From contig CAZANK010000001.1 in assembly GCA_964486235.1 (NCBI GenBank), forward strand, positions 2,488-40,922: a DNA stretch of 38,435 nucleotides, given 5' to 3'. Source of the DNA: an uncultured Prolixibacteraceae bacterium (GTDB lineage: Bacteria; Bacteroidota; Bacteroidia; Bacteroidales; Prolixibacteraceae). How positions within the stretch are numbered: position 1 is the stretch's first letter; each line of letters starts with the position of its first letter. The notes below the pieces were generated by a model. The model made no database searches and was not told the DNA's origin. It saw nothing but the letters and a program-made list of their open reading frames with translations. Positions 13,401 to 38,435 of the stretch are shown piece after piece. A program made the translations under genes and the position numbers.

Positions 13401-13595
13401 TTATGAGGTAATAAAATTATGCCCTTCAAATGTGGCGCATAATTTTGTAAAGACATTACGCTGATTTTTTCTTGCAGTCGATATAAAACCTTCAATCGGG
13501 GCATAGAATTCAGCTCCCCTGAAAGTTCGGAAACAGTTGGATACTTTTTGCTTGACCTTTGCCGCTCTGAGGTCCCTTTCGGCCTGATTATCCAA
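13401..13595 (-). mobile_element. C-terminal fragment of an IS66-family-like transposase (pseudogene)
   Basis: LDNQAERDLRAAKVKQKVSNCFRTFRGAEFYAPIEGFISTARKNQRNVF fits the IS66-type C-terminal pattern (DNNxAER, then KxKxKxSxxFRxxxGA and ISTxxK). Only about 65 homologous residues remain. The upstream part of the 112-aa ORF is out-of-frame read-through of a different fragment. Confidence 0.5.
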
Positions 13596-13761
13596 AAGTT
13601 GTGATAATCTGGCTGAACACATCGTAAAGCATCGAACCCATCGCCAAAGACCGGGGACTGTCTGTTTTAGGGCCAAACTGGTGTACCCCAAATTCTTCCA
13701 CCACGCTGGGATGATTGGGCAAAACCAACCGGGTACCATCTACGGCCAGGGTACGCATGCC
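13588..13761 (-). mobile_element. Internal fragment of an IS4-family-like DDE transposase (pseudogene), in a different frame from the IS66-like piece
   Basis: My own translation of the minus strand gives RVIGMRTLAVDGTRLVLPNHPSVVEEFGVHQFGPKTDSPRSLAMGSMLYDVFSQIITTFG then stop. AVDGTxLxLP...EFG...LYDV resembles the region around the first catalytic Asp of IS4-like transposases. There is no start codon and it is under 60 aa, so it is absent from the ORF track. Confidence 0.4.
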
Positions 13762-13806
13762 TATAACCCTATTTTCTAAAAAAGGAGTGGTTTTTGTCGT
13801 ACACCC
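13762..13806. repeat. Right arm of the 45-bp imperfect inverted repeat (reverse complement GGGTGTACGACAAAAACCACTCCTTTTTTAGAAAATAGGGTTATA)
   Basis: See the left arm at 10108-10151. This arm directly abuts the IS4-like fragment. Confidence 0.8.
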
Positions 13807-13851
13807 CCATCAAATTGATAGGCATTATGCAGTTTTTTTATTCTTTTATTT

Positions 13852-13859
13852 TACTTTTG
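13852..13859 (+). promoter_or_regulatory. Candidate Bacteroidota -7 promoter box TACTTTTG (consensus TAnnTTTG) upstream of the ECF sigma gene
   Basis: Matches the TAnnTTTG consensus 36 nt upstream of the ATG at 13895. No clear -33 TTTG partner was seen, so support is weak. Confidence 0.3.
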
Positions 13860-13894
13860 ACATGAATTAAAGGGAACTGTCAACAAACTAATCT

Positions 13895-14527
13895 ATGGCA
13901 AAAGAGGGTGATAAAAATAGAGAATACTGGGATATGGTTTGGTCTCAGTTTAAAGATGGTGACAAGGAGGCTTTTGCTGTTTTTTATAACCTTCACATTG
14001 ACCGCCTTTATCAATATGGTCTTAAATTCTGTAATGATGGAGAAACCATAAAGGATGCTATTCAGGAAGTATATCTTGATTTGTATCTGAAAAGAGAAAA
14101 GAATACAGCCGGTCCTGACAATCTAAAATACTATCTGTTTTTATCCCTGAAAAGAAATCTGATTAAGAAACTACAATTTGACAGGCGTTTTGATCGTGGT
14201 GAAATCGAAAACAAAAAACAAGCTGACCTGGAGTTTAGTATAGAGTACCTGCTTATTGAGAAAGAGCAGGAGGCAGAGCTTCAAAAAAAACTTGCAAATA
14301 CGTTAAATCAGCTTCCACGCAAGCAAAAAGAAGCAGTATACCTGCGATTTAATGAAGCGTTGGATTATCCTTCTATCGCAGTTGTTTTGGGAACTACAGT
14401 GGAATCGGTACGGAAGCAGGTATACAGGGCATTAAAGACTATTCGCGAGACGATCGACGATAAGTCGTTTATGTTGCTGTTTTCTTTTTTTCAAAAAAAG
14501 CTAAAAAAAAAGTCCATGTTTGAATAG
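13895..14527 (+). CDS. ECF-type RNA polymerase sigma-70 family factor
   Basis: Region 2-like FAVFYNLHIDRLYQYGLKF...IQEVYLDLYLKRE. Region 4 HTH LPRKQKEAVYLRFNEALDYPSIAVVLGTTVESVRKQVYRALKTIRE. It lies directly upstream of a FecR gene. Confidence 0.88.
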   Translation: MAKEGDKNREYWDMVWSQFKDGDKEAFAVFYNLHIDRLYQYGLKFCNDGETIKDAIQEVYLDLYLKREKNTAGPDNLKYYLFLSLKRNLIKKLQFDRRFDRGEIENKKQADLEFSIEYLLIEKEQEAELQKKLANTLNQLPRKQKEAVYLRFNEALDYPSIAVVLGTTVESVRKQVYRALKTIRETIDDKSFMLLFSFFQKKLKKKSMFE

Positions 14528-14557
14528 TTGGAAGCCTTTTAAGGTATAATTCCAACA

Positions 14558-15757
14558 ATGCGGATGGACAAGCTTAGTAAATACCTTGAAGACCTCAACT
14601 TTGTTCGTTGGGTTTTTGATACCACGCCGGAAATGGACCGGCATTGGGATCAATTTATGAGAGAACATCCTGATGAAATAAAAAGTATTCAGCACTCCCG
14701 GAGCATTATGCTCCAATTTCGGACAATCGCTAAAACGCTTTCCGAAGAGGAGAAGATTATTTTATTTTCGAGGGTACTGAATGAAATAGAGAAAAGACAA
14801 AAGGTAAAAACAACCTACCGGTTTTTTTCCGAAGTATTGAAATATGCGGCCATCGCCATAATTTTCTTTTCGGCAGGAGTATTGCTTTTTTACCGGGATA
14901 ATCCTGTCATCCCAGCCTTTTATACTTCAAGCTTAAATGACCGAATACCTGAAAATCAGGCACAATTGATTCGTGCAAGTGGAGAAACGGTCATTCTCGA
15001 CAAGCAATGCACCGTTCTGGAATACAAAAAAAACGGTGAGTTGGTCATAAATAACGATACTCTAAAACCAGTAAATTCAGATTCGAAAGGCGAACAGAAA
15101 CTCAACCAACTAATTATACCATACGGAAAAACCTCAGAATTAATACTGCCTGATGGGACAAAAGTATTTTTGAATGCGGGAAGCCGCTTGATTTATCCTG
15201 ATCTTTTCACGGGCGATACGCGTGATGTATTTCTGGTTGGAGAAGCCTATTTTGAAGTGGAGCACGATTCAAAACATCCATTCATCGTCCAGGTAAACGA
15301 ATTAAGAATTAAAGATTTGGGAACCAAGTTTAATGTCTCTGCTTATCCGTCTGATGGCCGCATTGAGACAGTATTGACTGAAGGAAAGGTAAGCATTCAG
15401 CCAGGCAATTCCGGTCTTTTCACCCGGTCAACAGAACTTATTCCCGGACAATTGGCTTCCTTTAACAAACAGAATCTTCAGATTTCAGTAGAATCAGTTA
15501 ATGTCGATGATTATATCCTTTGGACACAAGGGGTCATGAGGTTTGAAACGGCCGAACTTAGCCGAATTATAAAAAAACTGGAGCGCTATTTTAATGTTCG
15601 TTTTGAATATAAGGATCCGATGCTGGGTTCGTTATTGATTTCCGGAAAACTAGCGTTGAAGGAGGATAGACAGGAGGTTTTTGAACGGATTGCACGGGCT
15701 GCATCGGTAAAAATAGTAGAAATAGGAGATAACTATTATGAAGTAGTAAAAAATTGA
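14558..15757 (+). CDS. FecR-family anti-sigma factor (transmembrane sensor)
   Basis: TM helix AAIAIIFFSAGVLLFY. FecR motifs LPDGTKVFLNAGSRLIYP, VFLVGEAYFEVEHDSKHPFIV and IKDLGTKFNVSAY. C-terminal DUF4974-like MRFETAELSRIIKKLERYFNVRFEY. Confidence 0.9.
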   Translation: MRMDKLSKYLEDLNFVRWVFDTTPEMDRHWDQFMREHPDEIKSIQHSRSIMLQFRTIAKTLSEEEKIILFSRVLNEIEKRQKVKTTYRFFSEVLKYAAIAIIFFSAGVLLFYRDNPVIPAFYTSSLNDRIPENQAQLIRASGETVILDKQCTVLEYKKNGELVINNDTLKPVNSDSKGEQKLNQLIIPYGKTSELILPDGTKVFLNAGSRLIYPDLFTGDTRDVFLVGEAYFEVEHDSKHPFIVQVNELRIKDLGTKFNVSAYPSDGRIETVLTEGKVSIQPGNSGLFTRSTELIPGQLASFNKQNLQISVESVNVDDYILWTQGVMRFETAELSRIIKKLERYFNVRFEYKDPMLGSLLISGKLALKEDRQEVFERIARAASVKIVEIGDNYYEVVKN

Positions 15758-15790
15758 ACCGGAAGGAGTTCCGGCAACGGCCGATTCACC
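15755..15790 (+). repeat. Junction repeat copy 1 (TGAACCGGAAGGAGTTCCGGCAACGGCCGATTC), containing the hairpin CCGGAA-ggag-TTCCGG
   Basis: Begins at the FecR stop codon. It is similar to 18077-18112: the first 10 nt are identical and about 26 of 33 aligned positions match. Confidence 0.6.
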
Positions 15791-15957
15791 TTATCGTTTA
15801 TTTGACAAAATATGAAAAGAATCTGATGCACGTATCTGTTTTACCGACAGGCAGACCGGGTTGGATATACGCTCACCTCGTGAAGCTAAAACTCTTCCTT
15901 CAGCGAGTCTTCCGATTTACGAAATTTCAAATTAAGGAGAGCGACCACTTAAAAGTG

Positions 15958-18075
15958 ATGAAATATAAATTGATGACGACTAAAAGGCTATCAAATCAAA
16001 AAGGAATCATGATTGCATTCATCCTGTTTTTTAACGCGATAGGATATTCTGAAACAATGGCTCAGAATCGAAGAACAGAGATTTTATGGGATCATTATGG
16101 TGTCCCGCATATTTATGCAAAGAATACAAAGGAAATGTACTATGCCTTTGGCTGGTCGCAAATGCATAATCATGCAAACCTGATGTTGAAACTTTATGCA
16201 CAGGCAAGGGGCCGGGCCGCTGAGTACTTTGGCGAAGACTATCTAAGTTCGGACAAGCTTATTCAACTTTTCAATATCCCGGAACAGGCCATAAACGTTT
16301 ACAAGAAGCAGGAAGATGAATATAAAACGTATCTCGATGCCTTTGTTGCAGGAATTAACAATTACGCAAGAACACATCCTGAGGTAATTGATGAAAGGAG
16401 CAGACAGGTGTTGCCGGTAACCTCTTTCGATCTTATAAGTCATATGATTAGGATTGTAAGCTTAGAATTTGTGGCAAAAGAAGATATATACATCTCCGCG
16501 AAATCAACCGGGGCTGGTTCGAATGCTTATGCAATAGCCCCCTCAAAATCTGAGTCAAAGAATGCCATGCTTGTTAGTAATTCCCATCTTCCATGGTCTG
16601 ACTATTCTCTGTATTTTGAAGCTCATTTGAACACGGTTGGGTTTAATTCGTATGGGATCGCCCTTGTTGGGATGCCTGCAATTATTATGGCTTTTAACGA
16701 TCATCTGGGTTGGACATTCACCGTGAATCCGATCGATTGTTCTGACCGCTATGAGCTTACATTGCAGGATGGCGGCTATTTGTTGGACGGGAAAACCCTC
16801 AGATTTGAAAAAAAGAAAGCAACAATCAAAGTAAAGCAAAAGGATGGTCGGATTGAGGAAGAAGAGTTAGAATTCAATTATTCAAAGCACGGACCTGTGG
16901 TCGCGCAAAGCAGTCATAAAGCCTTTGCCGTGAGAATTGCAGGGCTTGACAATTTCAGTGTATTTGAGCAATATCATAAAATGAACAAGGCCAAAAATCT
17001 GACTGAATTTGAGTCAGCGCTAAAAATGCAGCAAATGGCTATGTTTAATATCATATATGCAGATAAATCAGGAAATATTCTATATCTGTTTAATGGGAAT
17101 GTTCCGATAAGAGAAGAAGGTGATTTTGCTTTTTGGAAGGGCACAATTGACGGAACTCAATCAAAGTTTATCTGGACCAAAACACATCCATACAACGATT
17201 TACCCAGATGTTTAAACCCGCCTTCAGGATTTATTCAGAATTGTAACGATGCCCCTTGGACTTGTACAGAGCCTGCGGTATTGGATGCTAAGAATTTCCC
17301 ACCCTATTTCTCTTCTCTTGGTACGTCTTTCCGCCCGCAGCGGGCTGTAAATATGATAAAAGATAATCCTTCGATTTCTTTTGACCAGTTAATAAGCTGC
17401 AAACATGACACAGGAATGGAGACAGCACACAGATTCTTGGACGATTTACTCGCAGCAGCTGATGCGTATCCCGATACAATGGTACTTAAAGCCGCCTCTG
17501 TGCTAAGACGATGGGATAAGAAAACGGAGGTTGATAGCAGAGGTGCTGTTTTATTCGCCAAATGGTGGGATTCGGTGAGCAGTGATCTGTTTGAAGTCCC
17601 ATGGAATGCAAAAGTCCCGAATACGACTCCTGACGGTATAAAAGACAAGAAAAAGGCTGTTGAATTATTGGGAAAAGCCGCGAATGAGGTTAAAGAGAAA
17701 TACGGATCATTGGATGTTGCCTGGGGCGATGTGTATCGCTTTCGATTGAATGGCATTGATTATCCGGCAAATGGCGGATCAGGGGAATACGGAATTTTCA
17801 GGACGCTATATTTTACCGATGATGGAGATAAAAAAATCGCTGTTGCCGGGGAGACTTATGTGGCCATAGTTGAATTTGGTAAAAAAGTGAAGGCAATGGT
17901 CTTGCTTGGTTATGGGAATGCGACTCAGGCAGGGAGTAAGCACATCGGAGATCAACTTCAAATGCTGTCTGAAAAGAAGCTGCGCCCTGCGTTAATAAAC
18001 AAAGCCAACATCATCAACAATCTTGAATTTTTCGAAACCCTTTCAATGGAGACCGATAAAAAAAGCACCTTATAA
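15958..18075 (+). CDS. Peptidase S45 / penicillin-acylase-family Ntn hydrolase (PvdQ / acyl-homoserine-lactone-acylase-like)
   Basis: Signal peptide within MKYKLMTTKRLSNQKGIMIAFILFFNAIGYSETMAQ. Alpha-subunit motif ILWDHYGVPHIYAKNTKEMYYAFGWSQMHNHANLMLKLY. Autoprocessing and nucleophile motif GAGSNAYAIAPSKSESKNAMLVSNSHLPW (compare PvdQ SNAIAV...LLANPHFPW), with the candidate nucleophile Ser codon at 16519-16521. The ORF-track start at 15754 is a TTG overlapping the FecR stop and adds 68 non-homologous residues. Confidence 0.82.
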   Translation: MKYKLMTTKRLSNQKGIMIAFILFFNAIGYSETMAQNRRTEILWDHYGVPHIYAKNTKEMYYAFGWSQMHNHANLMLKLYAQARGRAAEYFGEDYLSSDKLIQLFNIPEQAINVYKKQEDEYKTYLDAFVAGINNYARTHPEVIDERSRQVLPVTSFDLISHMIRIVSLEFVAKEDIYISAKSTGAGSNAYAIAPSKSESKNAMLVSNSHLPWSDYSLYFEAHLNTVGFNSYGIALVGMPAIIMAFNDHLGWTFTVNPIDCSDRYELTLQDGGYLLDGKTLRFEKKKATIKVKQKDGRIEEEELEFNYSKHGPVVAQSSHKAFAVRIAGLDNFSVFEQYHKMNKAKNLTEFESALKMQQMAMFNIIYADKSGNILYLFNGNVPIREEGDFAFWKGTIDGTQSKFIWTKTHPYNDLPRCLNPPSGFIQNCNDAPWTCTEPAVLDAKNFPPYFSSLGTSFRPQRAVNMIKDNPSISFDQLISCKHDTGMETAHRFLDDLLAAADAYPDTMVLKAASVLRRWDKKTEVDSRGAVLFAKWWDSVSSDLFEVPWNAKVPNTTPDGIKDKKKAVELLGKAANEVKEKYGSLDVAWGDVYRFRLNGIDYPANGGSGEYGIFRTLYFTDDGDKKIAVAGETYVAIVEFGKKVKAMVLLGYGNATQAGSKHIGDQLQMLSEKKLRPALINKANIINNLEFFETLSMETDKKSTL

Positions 18076-18076
18076 A

Positions 18077-18112
18077 TGAACCGGAAAGTGTTCCAGCACA
18101 GTCCGGTTCTTA
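18077..18112 (+). repeat. Junction repeat copy 2 (TGAACCGGAAAGTGTTCCAGCACAGTCCGGTTC), containing an 8-bp stem GAACCGGA / TCCGGTTC with a 16-nt loop
   Basis: Begins 2 nt after the acylase stop codon. See copy 1. Confidence 0.6.
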
Positions 18113-18155
18113 GTGTTAAATCTTTTGCTAATGTATCATTTAACGATTCAAATTT

Positions 18156-21100
18156 ATGAAAAAAAAACGAGAAGTTTTACATCCTTATGCGGATGAGATG
18201 AGATTAAACTTTAGGAAGATGAAATTGACAACTATTCTACTGTTTATTGTTTGTGTTACTTTTGGGAACAGTTTCTCTCAGGTTCGGTTATCGGTTCATT
18301 TTGACAAATCCGATATTCGTGAAGTACTTCTAACCATCGAAGAAAAAACCGATTACGTTTTTCTGTATAAGGATCAAATCTTCGATTTCTCACAAAAGAT
18401 TTCGGCTGCTTTTAACGAAGCAAAATTCGAGGATGTTCTAAAAGATTTCTGTGATCAGACGAATATCTCTTATGAGATACGCAACAGGCAGATTATCCTG
18501 AAATCGAAAGAGCCAGACGGTTTGCCGACAGCACAGCAACCTCAGAAAAGGACCGTTACCGGTAGAGTTACTGATACGGCAGGAGATCCGATTCCCGGGG
18601 TTTCCGTGATTGTAAATGGCACTTCAGTCGGAACCATTACCGACAGTGAAGGGAACTTTTCTTTACAGGTTCCCGGCGACGTCAAAGCACTGACCTTTTC
18701 TTTTGTAGGGATGAAAACACTTGAAGTTCCTGCCGCCGGGAAGACGACATTTTTCATCGAGATGGATGAAGAAACGGTTGGTGTTGATGAAGTTGTAGTG
18801 ATTGGTTATGGGATACAAAAAAAGGTTAACCTTTCTGGAGCCGTTGATGTCGTAACTTCTGAAGCATTAGTTAACCGCCCTGTGAATAATGTGGTGCAGG
18901 CTTTACAGGGAATGGCACCCAACCTCAACGTCACCGTAGGCAATGAAGGTGGAGAATTGGGAGGAAAGATGAGTATGAATATCCGGGGAATCGGTTCAAT
19001 CAGTGGTTCCGGTGGAAATCCCTACATCCTGGTGGATGGAATCGAACAGAGTATTTATAACATTAATCCAGAGGATGTTGAAAGTATATCAGTTTTAAAA
19101 GATGCAGCTGCGTCTGCGATTTACGGGGCAAGAGCCGCATTCGGTGTTATTTTAATTACGACCAAACGGGGGCAGACGGATGGTGTTACTGTAAATTATT
19201 CAAATAGTTTCTCTTTTGCCACGCCTATTAATCGTCCAAAATCGGTTAATTCGATCAAATTCGCGGAGTATTTTAATTTGGCTTCAGCCAATGATGGTAA
19301 TGTTCCCATATTCGAACCTATTATCATAGAGAACATGCACAAATACCAGGCCGGTGAACTGACGGACTGGACTATGCCGATTCCCTGGGAGCCTAATTAT
19401 TGGCTGACTTACCAGGGTGGATGGGCAAATACGGATTGGTATAAAGTATATTATAAAGATTGGGTACCCAAATCCACCCATGGCATTAGTTTAAGCGGTG
19501 GTGATCAACGAACGCAATTCTTTGTTTCAGGTTCAACGTTCGACCAGGATGGTCTTTTAAGATATGGTGATGATACTTATATCAGGAACAATTTGAATGC
19601 AAAAATCAATACGAGTGTCAATGATTGGCTACGCTTCAGCTTTTTAAGCAAATTCAACCGGACTAACTTGAACAGACCCAGTTACGATAAGGATGCGATG
19701 TATGCAAACATTGCTCGTTCCTGGCCTACAAATGATGTTTTTTTCCCCGATGGCAATCGCCATTATGAAACCGGATTAATTTATGTTCAGCAAGGCGATC
19801 GGTATATTGAAAACTCCAATGAATTCACCGTTATTCCGGGAATCGAGATTGAGCCTGTAAAAGGTTGGGTTATCAATGCAAACTATCGTTGGAAAATGAA
19901 TACCAATGGTTATACCAATCACGAAGCCAAGGTACAGGGAACCTTTACTGACGGATCTCCGTTTTACCTGAGGCCAAATAATTATTTTGCAAGAAACCAG
20001 TATGAAAGTTACTATAATTCACCGAATGTCTATTCTACCTACCACAAAAAGATAGGATCACATCAATTCACGGCGCTGGCTGGTTTTGAACAGGAAAAGG
20101 TTGACTATCAGTCTTCATATTCCCGAAAAGATGACTTGATCAGCGATGAAAAACCATCTCTTGGCACAGCTACAGGCAAGGAATATGCGTCAGGCACTCT
20201 CGGACATTGGGCAACCCGAAGTTATTTCGGCCGGTTAAATTATGATTTTCGTGAGAAGTATCTGCTGGAGGTTTCAGCACGCCGGGACGGCTCATCCAAA
20301 TTTGAAAAGGGATATCGTTGGGGTCTTTTCCCATCAGGGTCCATGGCCTATATTATTTCGAAAGAATCGTTCTGGGAGCCTCTCGAAACCTATATCCCCA
20401 TGATGAAAGTCCGGGGGTCATTTGGTTCTTTGGGAAATCAGGATGTGGCAAATTATCTGTACGTGGAGCGCCTTCCGGTTTATACGAACTTGCCATACAT
20501 TATGGGCGACGACAGACCCAATTATATAGGAATGGCAGGTCTTTCAAGCCCGGAATTAACATGGGAAAGGGTCAATACGACTAATTTTGGGCTGGATGTG
20601 GGCTTGGTAAAGAACAAACTGACGGCTTCTATCGATTATTTTATCCGGGATACTTACGATATGTTAGGGCCTGTAGAATCCCTCCCGGCAGTGCTTGGGA
20701 CAGAAGTTCCAAGATCAAACAACGCGACCTTGAAAACAAACGGATTTGAACTTATCGTGGGATGGAAAGATAAAATCAAGGATTTCTCATATGATGCTAA
20801 ATTTATGCTTTCCGATGCAAAAACCAAAATCATGGAATACTATAACCCTCAGGATTTATTAAGTGCTCCTTTCTACGAAGGGATGCAAATGGGTGAAATT
20901 TGGGGATATACGACCACCGGGTTATTTCAAACTGATCAGGAAGCCCAAAGCAAAGATCAGTCCTACTTATCAAAAGAAGTGTGGCGCGCGGGCGATGTGC
21001 AGTATGCTGACCTGAATGGAGATGAAAAGATTAATATTGGTAAAAATACTGTCGGAGACCATGGTGATCTTTCGATAATTGGTAACTCGACACCACGATA

Positions 21101-21581
21101 TTCATACAGTTTTCTGCTCAATGTATCATGGAAAGGATTTGATTATAATATGATTTGGCAAGGAGTCGGGAAAAGAGACCTCTGGCTCGATTCACCTAAT
21201 TTCTGGGGCGCCGGATGGATATGGACAGCCGTGGCCTTTGAAGAACATATGGATTATTGGACTGAAGACAACAGAGATGCTTATTTCCCCAGACCATACA
21301 TGGATAAAGGTGGCAAAAACCATCAGGTTCAAACAAGGTTCCTTCAAAACGGCGCATACCTGCGTTTGAAATCATTACAGTTGGGCTATACCTTACCTGA
21401 AAATCTTACCCGGAAATGCAGGGTTAAAAAATTAAGGTTTTTTGTAACTGGCGAAAATTTGTTAACATTTACGAAACTTCCCAAGAATTTTGATCCGGAA
21501 TCCACAGGTGGTGCTCATGGTGCGGGAATGATTTATCCCCTGCAGATAAATTTGGCCACTGGCGTTAATATAACCTTCTAA
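18156..21581 (+). CDS. SusC/RagA-family TonB-dependent receptor with an N-terminal STN signalling domain (TonB-dependent transducer)
   Basis: Signal peptide MKLTTILLFIVCVTFGNSFSQ. STN-like VRLSVHFDKSDIREVLLTIEEKTDYVFLYKD. VTGRVTDTAGDPIPGVSVIVNGTSVGTITDSEGNFSL. Plug region VVVIGYGIQKKVNLSGAV. C-terminal barrel strand ending in F (GVNITF). Alternative starts at 18198 or 18219 are possible. Confidence 0.93.
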   Translation: MKKKREVLHPYADEMRLNFRKMKLTTILLFIVCVTFGNSFSQVRLSVHFDKSDIREVLLTIEEKTDYVFLYKDQIFDFSQKISAAFNEAKFEDVLKDFCDQTNISYEIRNRQIILKSKEPDGLPTAQQPQKRTVTGRVTDTAGDPIPGVSVIVNGTSVGTITDSEGNFSLQVPGDVKALTFSFVGMKTLEVPAAGKTTFFIEMDEETVGVDEVVVIGYGIQKKVNLSGAVDVVTSEALVNRPVNNVVQALQGMAPNLNVTVGNEGGELGGKMSMNIRGIGSISGSGGNPYILVDGIEQSIYNINPEDVESISVLKDAAASAIYGARAAFGVILITTKRGQTDGVTVNYSNSFSFATPINRPKSVNSIKFAEYFNLASANDGNVPIFEPIIIENMHKYQAGELTDWTMPIPWEPNYWLTYQGGWANTDWYKVYYKDWVPKSTHGISLSGGDQRTQFFVSGSTFDQDGLLRYGDDTYIRNNLNAKINTSVNDWLRFSFLSKFNRTNLNRPSYDKDAMYANIARSWPTNDVFFPDGNRHYETGLIYVQQGDRYIENSNEFTVIPGIEIEPVKGWVINANYRWKMNTNGYTNHEAKVQGTFTDGSPFYLRPNNYFARNQYESYYNSPNVYSTYHKKIGSHQFTALAGFEQEKVDYQSSYSRKDDLISDEKPSLGTATGKEYASGTLGHWATRSYFGRLNYDFREKYLLEVSARRDGSSKFEKGYRWGLFPSGSMAYIISKESFWEPLETYIPMMKVRGSFGSLGNQDVANYLYVERLPVYTNLPYIMGDDRPNYIGMAGLSSPELTWERVNTTNFGLDVGLVKNKLTASIDYFIRDTYDMLGPVESLPAVLGTEVPRSNNATLKTNGFELIVGWKDKIKDFSYDAKFMLSDAKTKIMEYYNPQDLLSAPFYEGMQMGEIWGYTTTGLFQTDQEAQSKDQSYLSKEVWRAGDVQYADLNGDEKINIGKNTVGDHGDLSIIGNSTPRYSYSFLLNVSWKGFDYNMIWQGVGKRDLWLDSPNFWGAGWIWTAVAFEEHMDYWTEDNRDAYFPRPYMDKGGKNHQVQTRFLQNGAYLRLKSLQLGYTLPENLTRKCRVKKLRFFVTGENLLTFTKLPKNFDPESTGGAHGAGMIYPLQINLATGVNITF

Positions 21582-21608
21582 ATTATGAAAATTATGAAAA
21601 TTATGAAA
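21582..21608 (+). repeat. Three perfect tandem copies of the 9-mer ATTATGAAA spanning the SusD-like start codon
   Basis: Read directly. It produces three in-frame ATGs (MKIMKIMK...) immediately after the SusC stop at 21579-21581. Confidence 0.85.
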
Positions 21609-23396
21609 CGATATATACCTGTTATTCTTATTATTGGATCGCTCTTCACATGGTCATGTAGTGAAGGCTTCCTTGAAAGGTATCCACTCGATGAGTTAGC
21701 GCCTCAGGATTTTTTCAATTCTCCTGAAGAACTGCAAATCTATGCCAACAGATTTTATGTTCTCCTTCCTGCCCATCAGGGATATTTCAATACATTTTAT
21801 GTTGATGCGAATAGTGATAATCTGGTGCCTGCTGAATTCGACATGAGGCTTGCCGGAACACGTACAGTTCCTTCATCTGTTTCTGCCACTACTGTTAATA
21901 CCCGGTTTTCTATTGTTTATGGTTGGAATTGGGCTGACATTCGGCAGGCAAATTACTTCCTCGAGCATTGCAATAAGGCCACTGGTACACCAGAAGACCT
22001 TAAACAATACATAGGTGAAGTAAGGTTTTTCAGGGCATTCCTTTATTTTGACAAGGTTAAGACTTTTGGGGATGTCCCATGGATCAGTAAAACCACGAAT
22101 ACGACTTCTCCCGAACTATACATTCCTCGGACAAGCCGGAAGGTTGTGACCGATTCCATCATCGCGGATCTGGATATCGCGATAAGTTATTTAAAACCTG
22201 CTGCCCAGGCGAATGCCTTCAGAATAAATAAAGAGGTAGCTATGCTTTTAAAAGCACGCGTTTGTCTTTATGAGGGTACCTGGGAGAAATACCATAGCGG
22301 CACCCCACTTGGGGTGTCCGGTTCCGACGGTTCACAATTCATACAGAAAGCTGCTGAGGTTGCTGATCAACTTATGCAAACAAACGCGCACAGTATTTAC
22401 AAAGGACCTGCCGGACGGGAGTATTGGTCTCTTTTCAACCAGTTGGACTACACCGGGAATCCAGAGGTAATGCTTTGGAAAAAATACGATATAGGACTTC
22501 AGATAACACACAATGTGGCAAGATACATGGCAGGAGGAATTGGTCAAATAGGAATGTCGAAAGGGTTAATAGACAGCTATTTATGTACAGACGGAAAGCC
22601 TATTTCTATTAGTCCGTTGTTCCTTGGCTATGATTCTTTGCTCATGGAGGCAACAAATCGTGACCCCCGGCTCCAGCAATCGGTATTCCTCCCGGGAGAC
22701 GATCAGAGAATCAATGGACCCGGCGGCACACTGAACGTGAAATTCGAAAAACCCACTTTGGATGGGATGGGTGAGTTCCGGAACACCACAGGCTTCGCTA
22801 TTTATAAAGGAGTTAATCCTGATTATTCACAGTCATCAAATGACAATGTCGGTACACAGGGATCTATTATTTTTCGATATGCCGAAGCCTTGCTAATCTA
22901 TGCTGAAGCAAAGGCCGAAATGGGAAATATTACTCAAGCGGATGTCGACAGAACCATCAATCGGCTGCGCGACAGAGTGGGCATGATCCATTTGGATATC
23001 AATAATATCAGCACCGATCCCAACTGGGATTATCCGACCCTCTCTCCGGTCATTAATGAGATCAGGCGGGAACGAAGAGTGGAACTGTCCTGTGAAGGAT
23101 CAAGATGGGATGATCTGGCTCGTTGGAGAGCGCATCACCTCATTGTAGGTAAACGTCTCAAAGGAGCCAAATATACCGGCACAAATCTGGATGGTGCATA
23201 TAAAGATGCTCAGGGAAATCCAAGTATAGTAATCGGAGTAAATCTGTATGTTGATGCCAATGGTTTTATTGATCCCTATCAGAACGTTTTTCCAAATGGA
23301 TTCGGATTCGATCCAAATCGTGATTATTTATCACCTATTCCAAGCGACGAAATCACGTTGAATGACAAACTGGTACAAAATCCAGGTTGGGAATAA
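21585..23396 (+). CDS. SusD/RagB-family nutrient-binding outer-membrane lipoprotein
   Basis: Lipobox FTWSCSE. SusD motifs RINKEVAMLLKARVCLYEGTW, IFRYAEALLIYAEAKAEMG, ERRVELSCEGSRWDDLARW and SPIPSDEITLNDKLVQNPGWE. It starts 3 nt after the SusC-like gene. Confidence 0.92.
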   Translation: MKIMKIMKRYIPVILIIGSLFTWSCSEGFLERYPLDELAPQDFFNSPEELQIYANRFYVLLPAHQGYFNTFYVDANSDNLVPAEFDMRLAGTRTVPSSVSATTVNTRFSIVYGWNWADIRQANYFLEHCNKATGTPEDLKQYIGEVRFFRAFLYFDKVKTFGDVPWISKTTNTTSPELYIPRTSRKVVTDSIIADLDIAISYLKPAAQANAFRINKEVAMLLKARVCLYEGTWEKYHSGTPLGVSGSDGSQFIQKAAEVADQLMQTNAHSIYKGPAGREYWSLFNQLDYTGNPEVMLWKKYDIGLQITHNVARYMAGGIGQIGMSKGLIDSYLCTDGKPISISPLFLGYDSLLMEATNRDPRLQQSVFLPGDDQRINGPGGTLNVKFEKPTLDGMGEFRNTTGFAIYKGVNPDYSQSSNDNVGTQGSIIFRYAEALLIYAEAKAEMGNITQADVDRTINRLRDRVGMIHLDINNISTDPNWDYPTLSPVINEIRRERRVELSCEGSRWDDLARWRAHHLIVGKRLKGAKYTGTNLDGAYKDAQGNPSIVIGVNLYVDANGFIDPYQNVFPNGFGFDPNRDYLSPIPSDEITLNDKLVQNPGWE

Positions 23397-23428
23397 ACCC
23401 ATTTTAAGGGGATATTAATCTAAACCAC

Positions 23429-23463
23429 ATGGACTTGTCTGAACATTTATCAGGCAAGTCCAT
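23429..23463 (+). terminator. Stem-loop ATGGACTTG-(17 nt)-CAAGTCCAT followed by TTTAT; a possible weak intra-operon terminator or attenuator after the SusD-like gene
   Basis: The 9-bp arms are exact complements. It lies in the 97-nt gap between susD-like and the enzyme genes. The T tract is short, so it may only be an RNA-stability element. Confidence 0.35.
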
Positions 23464-23493
23464 TTATAAACATGGTGAAATTTAAATCAGAAA

Positions 23494-25194
23494 ATGTATC
23501 GGAAACATCTTCCTTCGGCTAGATGGTTATGTTTAATCTGTTTAGTCCTTTGCTGTAGTTGTGTAAAAAAAGTGACAATAGATTCTTTGGTCAAGGAGAT
23601 GACCCAAAGAGAAAGTCTTAGTTATTTTCCACGGAATCCTTATGTTCACAAACAATTCAGCAGTTACAATCCGGCATCAAAATCACCTGAAAAAGAGGGT
23701 TGGTTTGAAAACTTCGATATGTCTCATTTCATTCGGGTGGAAGAAGATGCCGGAAGGCGCGAATTTGTGATGCTTGATGCCGATGGGCCGGGTGCAATTG
23801 TCCGATGGTGGATGACCTTTTATAAAGCTCAAAACGGCGTGTTGCGGATTTATGTGGATCATGATTCAATTCCTGTTATTGAGGGATCACCAAACAAGTT
23901 ATTGAGCGGTGACCTTCTGACAAAATCTCCACTCGCGGTATCTGTCCAGGCAGGAGCTGACATTGGGGAAGAAGGACGTGATTACGATCACAATCTCTAT
24001 GTTCCCATACCCTTTGCACGTCATTGCAAAATTACTTACGAATGCGATTCGCTGGTTTTACGCTACGATTATGAGGGCATCAAAGTACCTCAAGGCTATT
24101 ATTCGCCCGATGTGTTTTATAATATTGGGTACCGTGCCTACGCGAAAAACATAACTGTTGAGTCTTCTTCACGCCAGTCACTCAAAGAGGCCGGAACTCT
24201 TTTTGATATAGCTGGTAAATCTTTATTGAACAACCAGGTAAACTCCGTCTCTAACGAGAAATTTGAGAAACTCATTCTGCCGGGAGATTCACTCGTCATT
24301 GAACTCACAGAAGAGAAACATGCCATAAATCAATTGATGGTTGATTTGGAAGCAAACGATATGCAGCAGGCTTTACGTTCTGCATTGTTAAAAGTATCAT
24401 TTGACGGATATCAAACAATTTGGGCTCCCATCGGTGAGTTCTTTGGGACAGGATATAGTCTGAATCCCCATAAAACATGGATGAATCAGAGAGATGAAAA
24501 TGGCAGGATGGAATCTTACTGGGTAATGCCCTTCAGAGAAAAATGTGCACTTACGATCGTCAACCATGGAAATGAAAATATAAAGCTGAAGGGATCGGTA
24601 GGCCTGATACCATATAAATGGACCACAAACAGCATGTATTTCGGAGCCTTTTGGCACGAATACCGGCATCTTAAAACCAGAGACGGGAAGGGTTTGCCTT
24701 TCGACCTGAATTTTATTGACATCAAGGGGAAAGGAGTATATGTGGGCGATCAGGTTACTCTCTTCAACAATACCTATCAGTGGTGGGGCGAAGGCGATGA
24801 GAAAATTTTTGTTGACGGAGAGTCTTTTCCATCCAGTTTTGGAACAGGTTCAGAAGATTATTACGGTTATTCATTTGCGCGGCCAGAATCATTTTCACAT
24901 CCCTTTTTATCGCAGCCGGAAGGAACGGGAAATACAAATTGGGGGATTACCGTTAACATGAGGCATCGCTCTCTTGATGCGATCCCATTTCATACATCAA
25001 TCAGCTCAAATATCGAATTATGGCATTGGGCTAATATCCGTATGAACTACGCACTCACATCTTATTTTTATGTATTGCCCCCTTTTACGATCAATGCCAT
25101 GCCGAACATTGAAAGCATAAGAAATCGGGTTGCAATTAAGAAAGATGATATTAACAACGATGAGAATAGTCCCCGGACTACTTTTACCAAATGA
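23494..25194 (+). CDS. DUF2961 / glycoside hydrolase family 172 protein (lipoprotein)
   Basis: Signal and lipobox CLVLCCSC. DUF2961 motifs DADGPGAIVRWWMTF, YVPIPFARHCKITYE and WWGEGDEKIFVDGESFPSSFGTGSEDYYGYSF. Confidence 0.85.
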   Translation: MYRKHLPSARWLCLICLVLCCSCVKKVTIDSLVKEMTQRESLSYFPRNPYVHKQFSSYNPASKSPEKEGWFENFDMSHFIRVEEDAGRREFVMLDADGPGAIVRWWMTFYKAQNGVLRIYVDHDSIPVIEGSPNKLLSGDLLTKSPLAVSVQAGADIGEEGRDYDHNLYVPIPFARHCKITYECDSLVLRYDYEGIKVPQGYYSPDVFYNIGYRAYAKNITVESSSRQSLKEAGTLFDIAGKSLLNNQVNSVSNEKFEKLILPGDSLVIELTEEKHAINQLMVDLEANDMQQALRSALLKVSFDGYQTIWAPIGEFFGTGYSLNPHKTWMNQRDENGRMESYWVMPFREKCALTIVNHGNENIKLKGSVGLIPYKWTTNSMYFGAFWHEYRHLKTRDGKGLPFDLNFIDIKGKGVYVGDQVTLFNNTYQWWGEGDEKIFVDGESFPSSFGTGSEDYYGYSFARPESFSHPFLSQPEGTGNTNWGITVNMRHRSLDAIPFHTSISSNIELWHWANIRMNYALTSYFYVLPPFTINAMPNIESIRNRVAIKKDDINNDENSPRTTFTK

Positions 25195-26285
25195 CACGAA
25201 ATATGAAAATCTGCAATGCTTTGAGCACAGTAAAATGGGTGGGACTTTTAACATTCATGACAATTGTAAAGTCATGTAATTCTCCGGAAAAATTCTATTC
25301 TGCCGATGACTTTGCCCTTGTTCAGAAGATTGATGCACATTTTCATTATCTAACCATGAATGAGGAATTCCTCAAATTGGCATCAAATCTGAACTTCCAT
25401 TTGCTTTCACCAAATTGGGATGGTGAGTATTCTATAGACGAGCAAATGAAAATTGCCCATAAGATATGGCTTTCCAATCCCAAAGGATTTGCATTTTTCG
25501 GTACTTTTTCGGTTGACAGTTTTGGTCAACCTGAGTTTGCTGACCTTACGATTGCCCGCATCAGGCAATGTTTACAAGGAGGCGCTTCTGGAATAAAAAT
25601 CTGGAAAAACATCGGGATGGTTTTAAAAGACCAGGATGGGAAATTTGTAATGATTGACGACCCGGCTTTCGATCCCGTTTTTACATTTCTCGAAGAGAAT
25701 AACATTCCGGTTCTGGCTCATTTGGGAGAACCAAAAGACTGCTGGCTACCCGAAAGTGAGATGACAGATCCGGGTGACAAAAGCTATTATCGAAACAATC
25801 CTGAATACCACATGTATCTGCATCCCGAAGTTCCTTCTTACGACGATCAGATTACAGCAAGGGACAATATCCTAAAAAAATACCCAAAACTTGATTTTAT
25901 CGGAGCACATCTGGGCAGTCTGGAATGGAATATTGATGAGTTGGCTCAACGTTTTGATATGTTCCCGAATTTCAAGGTTGACATGGCCGCCAGATTATAC
26001 CACCTGCAATATCAGTCTAAAAGCAACAGAGAAAAAGTCCGCAATTTTATGATCAAGTATCAGGACCGGATTTTATATGCCACAGATAATGAGGTACACG
26101 ATATTTCAGGTACGGATACTAAGACAACGATGCGAAATCTTCAACGGGGCTGGATGGCGCAATGGAGCTACCTCGCTACTGATTCAGTTATTAACAATAC
26201 AAAAGGATTAAAACTTCCAAAGGATGTTATTGATAAGATCTATTTCAAAAATGCGAAAAAGTATTTTAATCAAAAACAGAATTAA
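25191..26285 (+). CDS. Amidohydrolase-family (PF04909-like) metal-dependent TIM-barrel hydrolase, lipoprotein
   Basis: Lipobox IVKSCNS. Metal-binding HxH in KIDAHFHY. Later VLAHLGEP, FIGAHLGS and ILYATDN are spaced as in amidohydrolase_2 proteins. The start overlaps the upstream stop (ATGA). Confidence 0.6.
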   Translation: MTRNMKICNALSTVKWVGLLTFMTIVKSCNSPEKFYSADDFALVQKIDAHFHYLTMNEEFLKLASNLNFHLLSPNWDGEYSIDEQMKIAHKIWLSNPKGFAFFGTFSVDSFGQPEFADLTIARIRQCLQGGASGIKIWKNIGMVLKDQDGKFVMIDDPAFDPVFTFLEENNIPVLAHLGEPKDCWLPESEMTDPGDKSYYRNNPEYHMYLHPEVPSYDDQITARDNILKKYPKLDFIGAHLGSLEWNIDELAQRFDMFPNFKVDMAARLYHLQYQSKSNREKVRNFMIKYQDRILYATDNEVHDISGTDTKTTMRNLQRGWMAQWSYLATDSVINNTKGLKLPKDVIDKIYFKNAKKYFNQKQN

Positions 26286-26295
26286 ACTTAAAGAC

Positions 26296-27120
26296 ATGAA
26301 AAAATTATTGCTGATTTCAAGCCTGTTAATACTCTTTCAATGTGTGAAAGGAAACGATGATTTTAACAATGGTTATAATCCATCCGAAAAACTTGTGTTA
26401 AAAGATGTTTCATACGGGGAATTACCGCGACAAAAATTCAACGCTTACCTTCCGGCAAACAGAAATAAAAATACGAAAGCAATCATTCTTATTCATGGAG
26501 GCGGCTGGAAATCAGGAGATAAAAGCGATTTCGATTTATTTGCATCCGCATTTGCCGATTCAGCTATTGCAGCTTTTGCCATAAATTACAGGTATGCCAA
26601 TACAAATGATCGTGTAAGTTATGTTGAAATTTTGAAGGATATTGACAAGGCAATTAGTTGCATCATCGATAGTTCTGTGACTTTTTCCTTTAATCCGAAA
26701 CAAATATGTCTTTTGGGACATAGTGCAGGAGCGCACCTGGCATTACTCTATACTTTTCGTGACAACAAGAAGGGTGTTGTGAATAAAGTTGTTTCATTGG
26801 CAGGCCCAACAGACTTGACCGACCCTCAATTACTCAATATCTCCGGGATAAATGACTTGGTAAACACATTGGTAGGGAATGATTTAGATAAACGTGAAGA
26901 TGCCAGTCCCATAAATTATGCAGGCGAAATTCCCACCTACTTGTATCATGGCAAAGCGGATGAAGTAGTTCCCAGTCAGCAATCCGTTAAATTCTTCGAA
27001 AAAATCAGTAGTCGGAATCCGAGGAATCGTTGCGCCATAATTGAAGGCTGCGGACATGGGTTTGATCTGGCGGAATTCATTAAAATATTAAATGAAACAG
27101 TTGCATTCGTTAAAGAATAG
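26296..27120 (+). CDS. Alpha/beta-hydrolase esterase (HGGGW / GHSAG type), lipoprotein
   Basis: Lipobox ILFQCVK. Oxyanion motif ILIHGGGWKSGDK. Nucleophile elbow LLGHSAGAHLA. C-terminal GCGHGF. The ORF-track start at 26224 overlaps the upstream gene; ATG 26296 gives a proper signal peptide. Confidence 0.8.
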   Translation: MKKLLLISSLLILFQCVKGNDDFNNGYNPSEKLVLKDVSYGELPRQKFNAYLPANRNKNTKAIILIHGGGWKSGDKSDFDLFASAFADSAIAAFAINYRYANTNDRVSYVEILKDIDKAISCIIDSSVTFSFNPKQICLLGHSAGAHLALLYTFRDNKKGVVNKVVSLAGPTDLTDPQLLNISGINDLVNTLVGNDLDKREDASPINYAGEIPTYLYHGKADEVVPSQQSVKFFEKISSRNPRNRCAIIEGCGHGFDLAEFIKILNETVAFVKE

Positions 27121-27169
27121 CTATTGGATATTCATTTTCTGAAATAAGGTCTTTAATCGGTGAATTGAA

Positions 27170-29266: not shown

Positions 29267-29300
29267 TCAGGATTAAAATATTTTGAGATAAAGGGAGGCT

Positions 29301-30458: not shown

Positions 30459-30489
30459 ACCAAAACCGAAATACTAATCTCTGAAAACT

Positions 30490-31959: not shown

Positions 31960-32040
31960 AATGGTGATATGGATTACCCTCAAGATCGTATCAAAACAAA
32001 TTTTGACGTGTCAAATACATTAATAAATCAATTGTTAAAG

Positions 32041-34560: not shown

Positions 34561-34570
34561 GAAAATTACC

Positions 34571-35830: not shown

Positions 35831-35831
35831 A

Positions 35832-38372: not shown

Positions 38373-38435
38373 TCAATTATTTTCTGAGTTTTTCAATTTT
38401 TTGTACCTAAAAATCCTGCCGCTCGATTTTTGGCT

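Follow-up and report, generated by a model that had tools for sequence, protein, structure and literature searches.

Why should the gene of an acylase stand between those of an anti-sigma factor and a SusC-like transporter, two genes that usually adjoin each other? The question is raised by a stretch of 38,435 nucleotides (nt) from an uncultured Prolixibacteraceae bacterium, here called the window, which holds two polysaccharide utilization loci (PULs), PUL1 and PUL2, each with a sigma/anti-sigma pair. In PUL1, the genes of FecR (1417-2367) and SusC (2534-5950) simply follow each other. In PUL2, where all genes lie on the plus strand, an extracytoplasmic function (ECF) sigma factor gene (13895-14527; Pfam Sigma70_r2 and r4_2, NCBIfam TIGR02985/TIGR02937) and the gene of a FecR-type anti-sigma factor (14558-15757; Pfam FecR and FecR_C) are followed by an intact open reading frame (ORF) at 15958-18075. 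This frame encodes 705 residues (aa) from its ATG, public gene callers starting it at 16009 (688 aa) instead, and is placed by Pfam (PF01804) in the S45 N-terminal-nucleophile (Ntn) hydrolases of the penicillin/cephalosporin-acylase family. Only then comes the gene of a chimeric SusC-like TonB-dependent transporter (18156-21581). An initial annotation of the window had pointed to this gene of about 705 aa, to the plain adjacency in PUL1, and to the resemblance between the sequences after the FecR and acylase stop codons, and had proposed that the locus captured a foreign acylase while its junction was duplicated. The observation is confirmed here, whereas the interpretation is partly supported.

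The best explanation of the whole, to which we assign a probability of roughly 0.6, is that of an old acylase locus whose regulator was swapped, with a decayed copy of a junction cassette left behind, a hairpin that terminates an antisense RNA, and a substrate of the D-arabinan type. The arrangement itself is real and no assembly artefact, since the 5.1 kb surrounding the acylase recur with 100% identity in four independent assemblies from different samples. PUL2 combines a SusC (TIGR04056, E=2e-258) and SusD pair with two genes of glycoside hydrolase (GH) family GH172 and one each of GH109, GH116 and GH88, which makes it a PUL; its ECF sigma factor, its FecR, and a SusC with an N-terminal signalling (STN-type) extension make it one of the ECF sigma/anti-sigma kind.

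Acylase loci and a chimeric transporter

Homologues of the acylase at 45-70% identity are common in Bacteroidia, Chitinophagaceae, Cytophagales, Cyanobacteria, and Acidobacteriota. Their loci (labelled here with an L and a number) were found by an alignment-based scan of genome contigs, a scan with the single acylase protein having found none, and gene order was counted over those 25 Bacteroidota loci whose sequence runs on for 3 kb or more downstream of the acylase. GH172 is present in 12 of these 25 loci, and in nine of the 25, according to coordinates read by ourselves, the acylase is immediately followed by a SusC 58-63% identical to that of the window. Genes mostly stand in the order S45-SusC-SusD-GH172-Amidohydro_2-...-GH172, as they do in the closest two relatives for which long contigs exist (70% and 68% identity); both have a LacI-family regulator upstream, and their SusC, about 1060 aa long, has no N-terminal extension. 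The locus order that recurs in Bacteroidia is (S15 hydrolase)-S45-SusC-SusD-GH172-Amidohydro_2-...-GH172-...-GH116, and the acylase, being no stray capture, belongs to the conserved core of this type of PUL. The proposed foreign origin of the gene is contradicted by the many genomes in which S45 lies directly upstream of an orthologous SusC without any sigma/FecR genes. As to the suggestion that an S45 acylase in a sigma/anti-sigma PUL is unusual, sigma/FecR genes are indeed rare among the Bacteroidota loci (two of the 25, L008 and L028, where the pair lies between S45 and SusC and is 32-36% identical to the window pair), whereas the adjacency of S45 and SusC is itself common. In L083-L085, a 66%-identical acylase stands directly before GH172, Amidohydro_2, and a PF00756 esterase, with no SusC/SusD in between and downstream of a SusC-like/DUF4249 pair and a fucosidase, so that the link between acylase and GH172 persists even with a different transporter.

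The regulators were compared with 80 metagenome loci encoding FecR relatives at 38-67% identity. All 80 show the order sigma-FecR-SusC wherever the contig continues. FecR relatives at 60-80% identity occur in Prolixibacteraceae-type metagenome bins, the closest being that of L166 (80%). No gene separates FecR from SusC in about 75 related FecR loci, and L166 alone has one there, which encodes a different hydrolase; the position of the acylase is thus as unusual as had been claimed.

The two comparisons meet within the transporter. Residues 1-125 of the window SusC (18156-18530) are 73-82% identical to the N-termini of the SusCs adjoining FecR relatives, whereas residues 126-330 and 331-end are 53-66% identical to acylase-linked SusCs (60-66% for 331-end alone), and the barrel (331-end) reaches only 40% with the best SusC of the FecR-family loci. 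The 125-residue extension precedes the start of the TIGR04056 match at residue 132 and gives a weak FecR_C-like match in Pfam (E=6e-4). By sequence, this SusC is a chimera, with an N-terminus from the sigma/FecR module and a body orthologous to the acylase-linked SusCs. Taken together with the conserved S45-SusC synteny, this is most simply read as an acylase and a transporter body of old standing in the locus, joined by an imported block of sigma factor, FecR, junction, and signalling domain. Another PUL of the same regulator family carrying an amide hydrolase lies at 8745-13235 of L167, where a related sigma/FecR pair and SusC (FecR 69% identical, SusC N-terminus 79%) occur with an alkaline ceramidase (PF04734), a CBM9 protein, an SSF transporter, and GH109.

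The acylase matches PF01804 (Penicil_amidase) with 432 bits (cut-off 21.3; E=7e-129) over residues 40-685 and profile positions 2-673 of 675. Its predicted site of Ntn autoproteolysis is Gly187-Ser188 (16516-16521, Ser codon 16519-21), Ser188 aligning to residue 1 of the beta chain of solved acylases. G187-S188, H210, N430, and E639 are invariant among 30 homologues, which upholds the proposed membership of S45 with an intact nucleophile. H210, V256, N430, and E639 align to beta-chain His23, Val70, Asn244, and Glu455 of glutaryl acylase, which we take to be oxyanion-hole and processing residues of that enzyme; V256 is, despite its alignment to Val70, absent from the invariant and near-invariant columns of the 30-homologue alignment. 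The best solved relatives are the class I cephalosporin acylases, which act on glutaryl-7-aminocephalosporanic acid (glutaryl-7-ACA), with E=1.5e-165 over residues 37-684 (4e57/1keh). In the same comparison with solved structures PvdQ is much weaker (E=3e-54), and the NCBIfam PvdQ equivalog NF051460 scores 241.7 bits, below its cut-off of 950, so that the earlier likening of the enzyme to PvdQ and other acyl-homoserine lactone (AHL) acylases is not supported. In glutaryl acylases, Arg57 of the beta chain binds the carboxylate of the substrate. Because this residue is replaced by Ile243 in the window enzyme ('iim' versus 'irf') and by Thr in the consensus of PUL-linked homologues, the acyl pocket is unlikely to be adapted to a side chain with a carboxylate. 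Judged by its sequence, the enzyme is a competent, catalytically intact S45 acylase that is neither a PvdQ nor a typical glutaryl acylase. Its N-terminus, MKYKLMTTKRLSNQKGIMIAFILFFNAIGYSETMAQ, reads by eye as a Sec-type signal peptide without lipobox cysteine, which suggests a soluble enzyme acting in the periplasm, that is, after import of the substrate and not before it, as had been supposed.

The junction cassette and its predicted antisense RNA

The sequences following the FecR stop codon and the acylase stop codon are similar, as had been noticed: the pair 15752-15787 and 18074-18109 extends over 36 nt with 78% identity, and a degenerate 22-mer spanning both copies finds these two sites only in the window (0 expected, 100 shuffles). 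A longer repeat was considered and dropped, as pairwise alignment gave no convincing similarity downstream of the 36 nt or so. Both copies belong to a cassette of 80-130 nt that extends from the FecR stop codon to the SusC start, in the order stop codon and A-run, hairpin (consensus CCGG-nn-AGTG-TTCCAG-CAC-nnn-CCGG), TTT, box GTGTTAAAT, variable AT-rich spacer, box CATTTAACG, and TTCAAAnnTATGAAAAAAAAACGAGAA. A profile of this cassette, built from 55 distinct junctions of the FecR loci, matches 75 of the 80 FecR loci, these being the same junctions used in its construction; it also matches L166-L169, the distant L028, and PUL1 of the window, none of which served to build it.

Three sites only, all FecR/SusC junctions, are matched in the 38 kb of the window, the next-best matches scoring at most 5 bits. 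Copy 2 (18074-18155; profile match 18078-18199, E=2e-25) is a complete cassette, with its hairpin at 18078-18109, boxes GTGTTAAAT and CATTTAACG, and then CAAATTTATG, in a layout near-identical to the junctions of L089, L144, and L166. The cassette of PUL1 (2434-2540; profile match 2436-2540, E=4.4e-7) is a divergent member of the same type, in which a hairpin at 2442-2471 is followed, as read on the minus strand, by a T7 run, and a -7 box, TACATTTG, overlaps the ATG of SusC. Copy 1 (15752-15787, after the FecR stop) is a truncated and decayed remnant comprising the hairpin part only; its profile match (15757-15800) gives 9.7 bits and E=0.017 and covers profile positions 10-52 only. A profile of the SusC-proximal half of the cassette matches 18129-18169 only (E=2.7e-11) and, in the same search of the window, nothing upstream of the acylase. 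The same upstream element does not, then, precede both genes, only the hairpin standing before the acylase. Two candidates in this interval, a look-alike of the second box at 15912-15936 and a SusC-start relic, ACAAAATATGAAAAG, at about 15806, were unsupported by profile searches, and the latter proved to be part of the hydrolase-gene relic described below.

Over the 32-nt hairpin core, copies 1 and 2 agree at 25/32 positions, copy 1 and L088 at 26/32, copy 2 and L089 at 29/32, copy 2 and L166 at 28/32, and copy 1 and L166 at 24/32. The two copies being no closer to each other than to the cassettes of other genomes, their resemblance reflects family-wide conservation and not a fresh duplication. 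What remains of the duplicated junction first proposed is that both flanks of the acylase are homologous copies of FecR-SusC junction DNA, the element being at the same time generic to such junctions, which in part refutes the proposal on the initial annotation's own terms.

The hairpin was analysed for covariation in a hairpin-only alignment of 32 distinct hairpins, RNAalifold on a MAFFT alignment of whole cassettes being uninformative because the 3' arm was misaligned. Both sides have changed in eight of the 14 pairs, 84% of the cells are paired (at most 50% with a slid partner), and none of 500 shuffles reaches the observed pairing values. The alignment argues that the hairpin is a real structured element. 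Its orientation is indicated by 29 G-U cells on the minus strand versus seven on the plus strand, by a more stable minus-strand fold in 29 of 39 sequences (mean -18.3 versus -15.9 kcal/mol), and by a T-run on the minus strand (read on the plus strand, five to eight A precede the hairpin and no more than TTT follows). A terminator scan also flags both window copies on the minus strand. In addition, 38 of 40 cassettes and both window SusC genes have on the minus strand an exact TAnnTTTG motif (CAAAnnTA on the plus strand) that overlaps the ATG of SusC and is absent from the other 20 gene starts of the window. TAnnTTTG is the -7 box of the primary, housekeeping-type sigma factor of Bacteroidetes, sigma-ABfr (PMC7366714).

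Covariation, the minus-strand bias of G-U pairs, stability, and T-run, and the conserved TAnnTTTG together lead to the prediction of an antisense RNA of about 70-90 nt, which would start from the box overlapping the SusC start and end at the hairpin by the FecR stop. DonS-type antisense RNAs, of 78-128 nt, are divergent to susC homologues and repress their PULs (PMC7366714), and 32 of them are known in Bacteroides thetaiotaomicron (PMC10994844). The hairpin is probably the Rho-independent terminator of such a DonS-like RNA, and not a promoter common to both genes. For copy 2, the predicted small RNA would span 18070-18143 of the minus strand (about 70-75 nt), with its -7 box TAAATTTG at 18156-18149, the terminator hairpin at 18109-18078, and the tail UUCAUUUAU; that of PUL1 would measure about 88 nt, also on the minus strand. 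Rfam yields no match at gathering score in the window and nothing relevant at E up to 10 in 18040-18260.

On the plus strand, a housekeeping-type (sigma-ABfr) -7 box, TACTTTTG, lies at 13852-13859, 36 nt upstream of the ECF sigma gene. Among the plus-strand TAnnTTTG sites in 13700-18300, it alone stands upstream of a gene start, those at 15165 and 18257 being inside coding regions, and the same scan found no housekeeping -7 box before the acylase. Since the acylase gene lacks this box and the SusC-proximal half of the cassette, transcription would most likely reach it from the promoter of sigma-fecR, by read-through of the decayed hairpin, in which case its expression would follow that of the sensor genes and not that of the induced susC operon. 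The upstream regions of the sigma genes compared share no ECF-type motif, and GTTAAAT and TTTAAC were rejected as -35 and -10 elements of an ECF promoter, because their spacing varies between 14 and 19 nt.

A further hairpin lies at 18180-18195, 24-40 nt into the annotated SusC ORF, and at the same position in L086-L163. Its stems differ widely in sequence while their pairing is kept (structure conserved, sequence not), and its plus strand is the more stable in 47 of 51 sequences (mean -11.2 versus -7.2 kcal/mol), a strong bias that makes it part of a sense leader. In L129, in-frame stop codons follow the annotated first ATG of SusC, so translation of SusC may in truth begin at an ATG further downstream (in the window, at M15 or M22), which would make this region a 5' leader.

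Footprints of a proposed regulator swap and competing explanations

The history of the junction can be followed with L166, a second case of an enzyme gene behind FecR. After its FecR stop codon, L166 has an almost complete cassette (E=4e-18 in a search of this locus only, 2e-15 in one of all loci) and a 16-codon SusC-start relic, and about 120 nt beyond this relic a gene that Pfam identifies as Peptidase_S15. The window retains at 15799-15845 (plus strand) the leader and first codons of such an S15 (CocE/NonD) hydrolase gene, now deleted, with 82% identity over 49 nt to L166 2806-2854 (E=1e-8 pairwise, 3.6e-6 against all loci). Window and L166 thus correspond with 79% identity over 89 nt (FecR end and hairpin), then about 200 nt are missing in the window, and then the S15 start follows. 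Copy 1 is the positional orthologue of the cassette hairpin of L166, yet it is more diverged from it than copy 2 is. The L166 cassette (2574-2795) is decaying too, GTGTTAAAT having become GTATTTG and the C of its -7 box a T. An S15 gene adjoins S45 in L010 and L028 and lies not far from it in L008 and L030, and many contig sizes are common to the S15 and S45 match lists; the closest S15 homologues (P0243, P0244) belong, by their gene context, to unrelated loci. The acylase frame is open for 68 codons upstream of ATG 15958, back to the FecR stop (15754-18075), and the relic S15 start (ATG 15826, MHVSVLPTGR; MQISILPINR in L166) is in frame with it, which may be chance or a fusion remaining from the deletion.

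In the history that we propose, the ancestral locus would have had no sigma/anti-sigma control and would have been rewired by the import of a module of sigma factor, FecR, cassette, and STN domain. The junction would have been duplicated during this rewiring, which would have placed S15 and S45 between FecR and SusC. The ancestor of the window and L166 organisms would then have carried sigma-FecR-cassette copy-SusC relic-S15-S45-cassette-SusC, and the window lineage would have lost most of the upstream copy, the remainder decaying, along with the S15 gene. Of the idea that the junction was duplicated as the acylase was put in place, the duplication alongside the placing of enzyme genes survives in this scheme, whereas these genes appear as natives of the PUL type. 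A weak match to the C-terminus of IS66 transposases (E=4e-4, under the Pfam cut-off) in a 112-aa ORF on the minus strand (13401-13739), between PUL1 and the sigma gene of PUL2, is compatible with a rearranged boundary and may be a scar of rearrangement.

How does this history fare against other explanations? The account of the initial annotation, in which a PUL of the sigma-FecR-SusC kind captured a foreign acylase, its junction was duplicated, and the same sigma-dependent element came to stand before both genes in one regulon, agrees with the homologous junction DNA on both flanks, with the uninterrupted junction of all other FecR relatives, and with L166, where an enzyme gene also lies behind a junction copy and a SusC-start relic, so that the junction was duplicated in this lineage. 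We nevertheless hold it to be rather unlikely. Genomes without sigma/FecR commonly have S45 directly upstream of the orthologous SusC, and the SusC body groups with the acylase-linked SusCs, only its first 125 residues with the FecR family; what both sites share is the hairpin alone, the SusC-proximal half missing upstream of S45, and this hairpin behaves as a minus-strand-biased structured element and not as a promoter. Nor are the two copies more alike than cassettes of different genomes. That the repeat is a chance similarity or a genome-wide palindrome like the repetitive extragenic palindromic (REP) sequences, unconnected with the locus, would fit two GC-rich palindromes standing after stop codons like generic terminators. 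It deserves hardly any credence, given zero matches expected by chance, a cassette profile that matches only the three FecR/SusC junction sites in 38 kb, and the recurrence of this sequence, in the same place, in 75 of 80 related loci.

A more serious objection concerns the antisense RNA. In FecI-type systems, a sigma-dependent promoter is needed before the transporter gene, and none was found elsewhere. The hairpin could thus be a sense terminator or attenuator of a constitutive sigma-fecR transcript, GTGTTAAAT and CATTTAACG the ECF-sigma promoter of susC, and CAAAnnTATG a translation-start context. The housekeeping -7 box of the sigma gene, the conservation of the boxes in sequence without covariation, and the plus-biased hairpin in the 5' region of susC, a sign that sense RNA covers the area, all speak for this proposal, and as no ECF promoter motif is known for the PUL sigma factors of Bacteroides (PMC7366714), none would be recognisable here. 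We regard it as possible while leaning against it, because the spacing of the boxes is too variable for -35 and -10 elements, the T-run lies on the minus strand, the G-U pairs favour that strand by 29 to 7, and start-codon context alone hardly explains why a minus-strand TAnnTTTG keeps a fixed position in 38 of 40 cassettes while no other gene start of the window has one. The remaining alternative regards the enzyme as a quorum-quenching AHL acylase of the PvdQ/QuiP/AiiC type, whose position in the PUL would be incidental or would tie signal degradation to nutrient sensing, as had also been suggested at first. JGI annotations name homologues acyl-homoserine-lactone acylases, PvdQ is a detectable relative, the change from Arg to Ile at the carboxylate-binding position is compatible with an aliphatic acyl chain, and homologues from Cyanobacteria reach 45-50% identity. 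Those annotations were made automatically, however, the PvdQ equivalog falls far short of its cut-off, the acylase is syntenic with SusC/SusD/GH172 across many genomes, and the scanned ORFs of the window include no LuxI/LuxR-type genes. Nothing ties the enzyme to quorum signals, and this alternative appears very improbable.

The regulator swap with a predicted antisense RNA, which we prefer, has points to its disadvantage as well. An acylase of about 80% identity was not found in the database searched, and the sigma/FecR pairs of L008 and L028 are, at 32-36% identity, independent acquisitions and not ancestors. The contig of L166 ends within the S15 gene, short of any S45 gene downstream, and the order of duplication and deletion in our scheme is tentative. 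The sigma-dependent susC promoter, which has to lie in the same stretch as the cassette, was not located, and the boxes read as parts of the antisense RNA might be that promoter. The U-tail of copy 2, UUCAUUUAU, is poor; taken alone, the window sequence folds equally well on both strands; the second stem (GTTAAAT/ATTTAAC) is weak and without strand preference; and the G-U and stability statistics come from related, non-independent sequences. The antisense RNA, its ends, and the read-through into S45 are all predictions, and the acyl substrate of the acylase is a guess. Neither a GH183 (DUF4185) endo-D-arabinanase nor a D-arabinose (L-fucose) isomerase occurs among the scanned ORFs of the window, which ends at 38435.

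Substrate, significance, and comparison with known systems

Downstream of SusC, PUL2 continues on the plus strand (21585-38084) with SusD, GH172, Amidohydro_2, a BD-FAE esterase, a second GH172, a NagX/HGSNAT-like N-acetyltransferase, GH109, GH116, GH88, and a PF00756 esterase. Neighbouring ORFs overlap by 62 nt in the Amidohydro_2/BD-FAE pair (25191-27120) and by 77 nt in the GH88/esterase pair (34571-38084), so each downstream gene probably begins later than listed. Among solved structures, GH116 comes closest to the exo-beta-D-arabinofuranosidase ExoMA2 (8ic6, E=2.6e-102), and glucosylceramide, a substrate suggested by the Pfam name of the family, was dropped after this comparison with the Protein Data Bank, in which glucosylceramidase reached 1e-7. 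The two GH172 genes match the exo-alpha-D-arabinofuranosidases of Dysgonomonas gadei and Microbacterium and alphaFFase1 (8ah3, 8ic8, 7v1v). GH172 and GH116 degrade mycobacterial D-arabinan (PMC10115798, PMC10509167). In a relative of the locus, L082, an L-fucose/D-arabinose-type isomerase lies next to the acylase. The NagX/HGSNAT-like gene, encoding a transmembrane hexosamine N-acetyltransferase, adjoins GH109 (29301-31959), a pair which suggests a non-acetylated amino sugar that would need acetylation before cleavage.

Our best guess at the substrate is a glycan with D-arabinofuranose plus amino-sugar and acyl decorations. The periplasmic acylase would remove a non-carboxylated N-acyl group from imported glycan fragments containing D-arabinofuranose, of the actinobacterial cell-wall type, with the esterases, the amidohydrolase, and the NagX-like/GH109 pair as its partners. 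In a bolder form, which we put forward only as a speculation with the odds against it, S45 and its frequent S15 partner would form, with the Amidohydro_2, beta-lactamase-fold, and esterase genes, a de-acylation toolkit for non-acetyl N- and O-acyl decorations on actinobacterial D-arabinofuranose cell-wall glycans (such as arabinogalactan or lipoarabinomannan fragments), and jointly the cassette would be a multicopy antisense-RNA family pairing through a shared 5' sequence with the susC leaders of all paralogous sigma/anti-sigma PULs. If true, the cephalosporin-acylase clade, long an orphan, would have a first natural substrate, and environmental Bacteroidia would have a network acting in cis and in trans that prioritises glycans. 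A search of the literature for acylases in PULs found nothing relevant, and acylases have no occurrence in the D-arabinan papers (PMC10115798, PMC10509167), the supplements of the D. gadei paper holding no checkable gene list of PUL42.

What the locus adds to known kinds is an S45 acylase as a conserved component of a PUL, a probable regulator swap with visible scars, and a predicted DonS-like cassette outside gut Bacteroides. The recurrent link between S45 and GH172/GH116 is a testable lead to the natural role of the cephalosporin-acylase-like clade, and points to undescribed acyl decorations on glycans of the D-arabinan type or to steps of their breakdown. The locus is also a clear example of a PUL changing its regulator, a block of sigma factor, FecR, junction, and STN domain having probably been grafted onto the transporter of another lineage and having left as its footprints a decayed junction copy and the relic of a deleted gene. 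The cassette, conserved over dozens of loci, is a defined place in which to seek the promoter of PUL-type ECF sigma factors and DonS-like RNAs outside gut Bacteroides. None of these findings overturns current models.

The window enzyme shares with the glutaryl-7-ACA acylases of Pseudomonas and Brevundimonas (1keh, 1fm2, 1or0, 4e57) the precursor layout with Gly/Ser autoprocessing and the catalytic residues, and differs from them in having Ile243 in place of Arg57; for these acylases we know of no natural substrate or PUL context. With the AHL acylases PvdQ, QuiP, AiiC, and AhlM it has the S45 Ntn-hydrolase family in common, even though PvdQ is far more distant than the glutaryl acylases and the context of the window is neither that of pyoverdine nor that of quorum sensing. 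PUL2 resembles the FecIRA-type PULs with trans-envelope signalling in its ECF sigma factor, its FecR, and the N-terminal extension of its SusC (125 residues here), and departs from them by the enzyme gene between FecR and SusC, as seen in none of about 75 related loci.

The D-arabinan clusters of D. gadei (PUL42) and Microbacterium arabinogalactanolyticum (PMC10115798, PMC10509167) have GH172 and GH116 in common with PUL2, whereas their GH183/DUF4185 endo-arabinanase is not in the window. Among the paralogous FopS/GibS small RNAs of Bacteroides, the FopS RNAs act in trans, nine of the 14 being intergenic, and the FopS family is deposited in Rfam (PMC11697453), scans with which gave no significant match in the window. 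The DonS-type RNAs of B. fragilis and B. thetaiotaomicron (PMC7366714, PMC10994844) are closer, by description, to the RNA predicted here: they too lie between anti-sigma factor and susC, divergent to the latter, with a housekeeping-type promoter and a terminator hairpin as also predicted for the window, where the length would be about 70-90 nt against 78-128 nt. The window RNA differs in being a prediction, made in environmental Bacteroidia (Prolixibacteraceae-like), and in belonging to a cassette whose sequence is strongly conserved among many paralogous loci.

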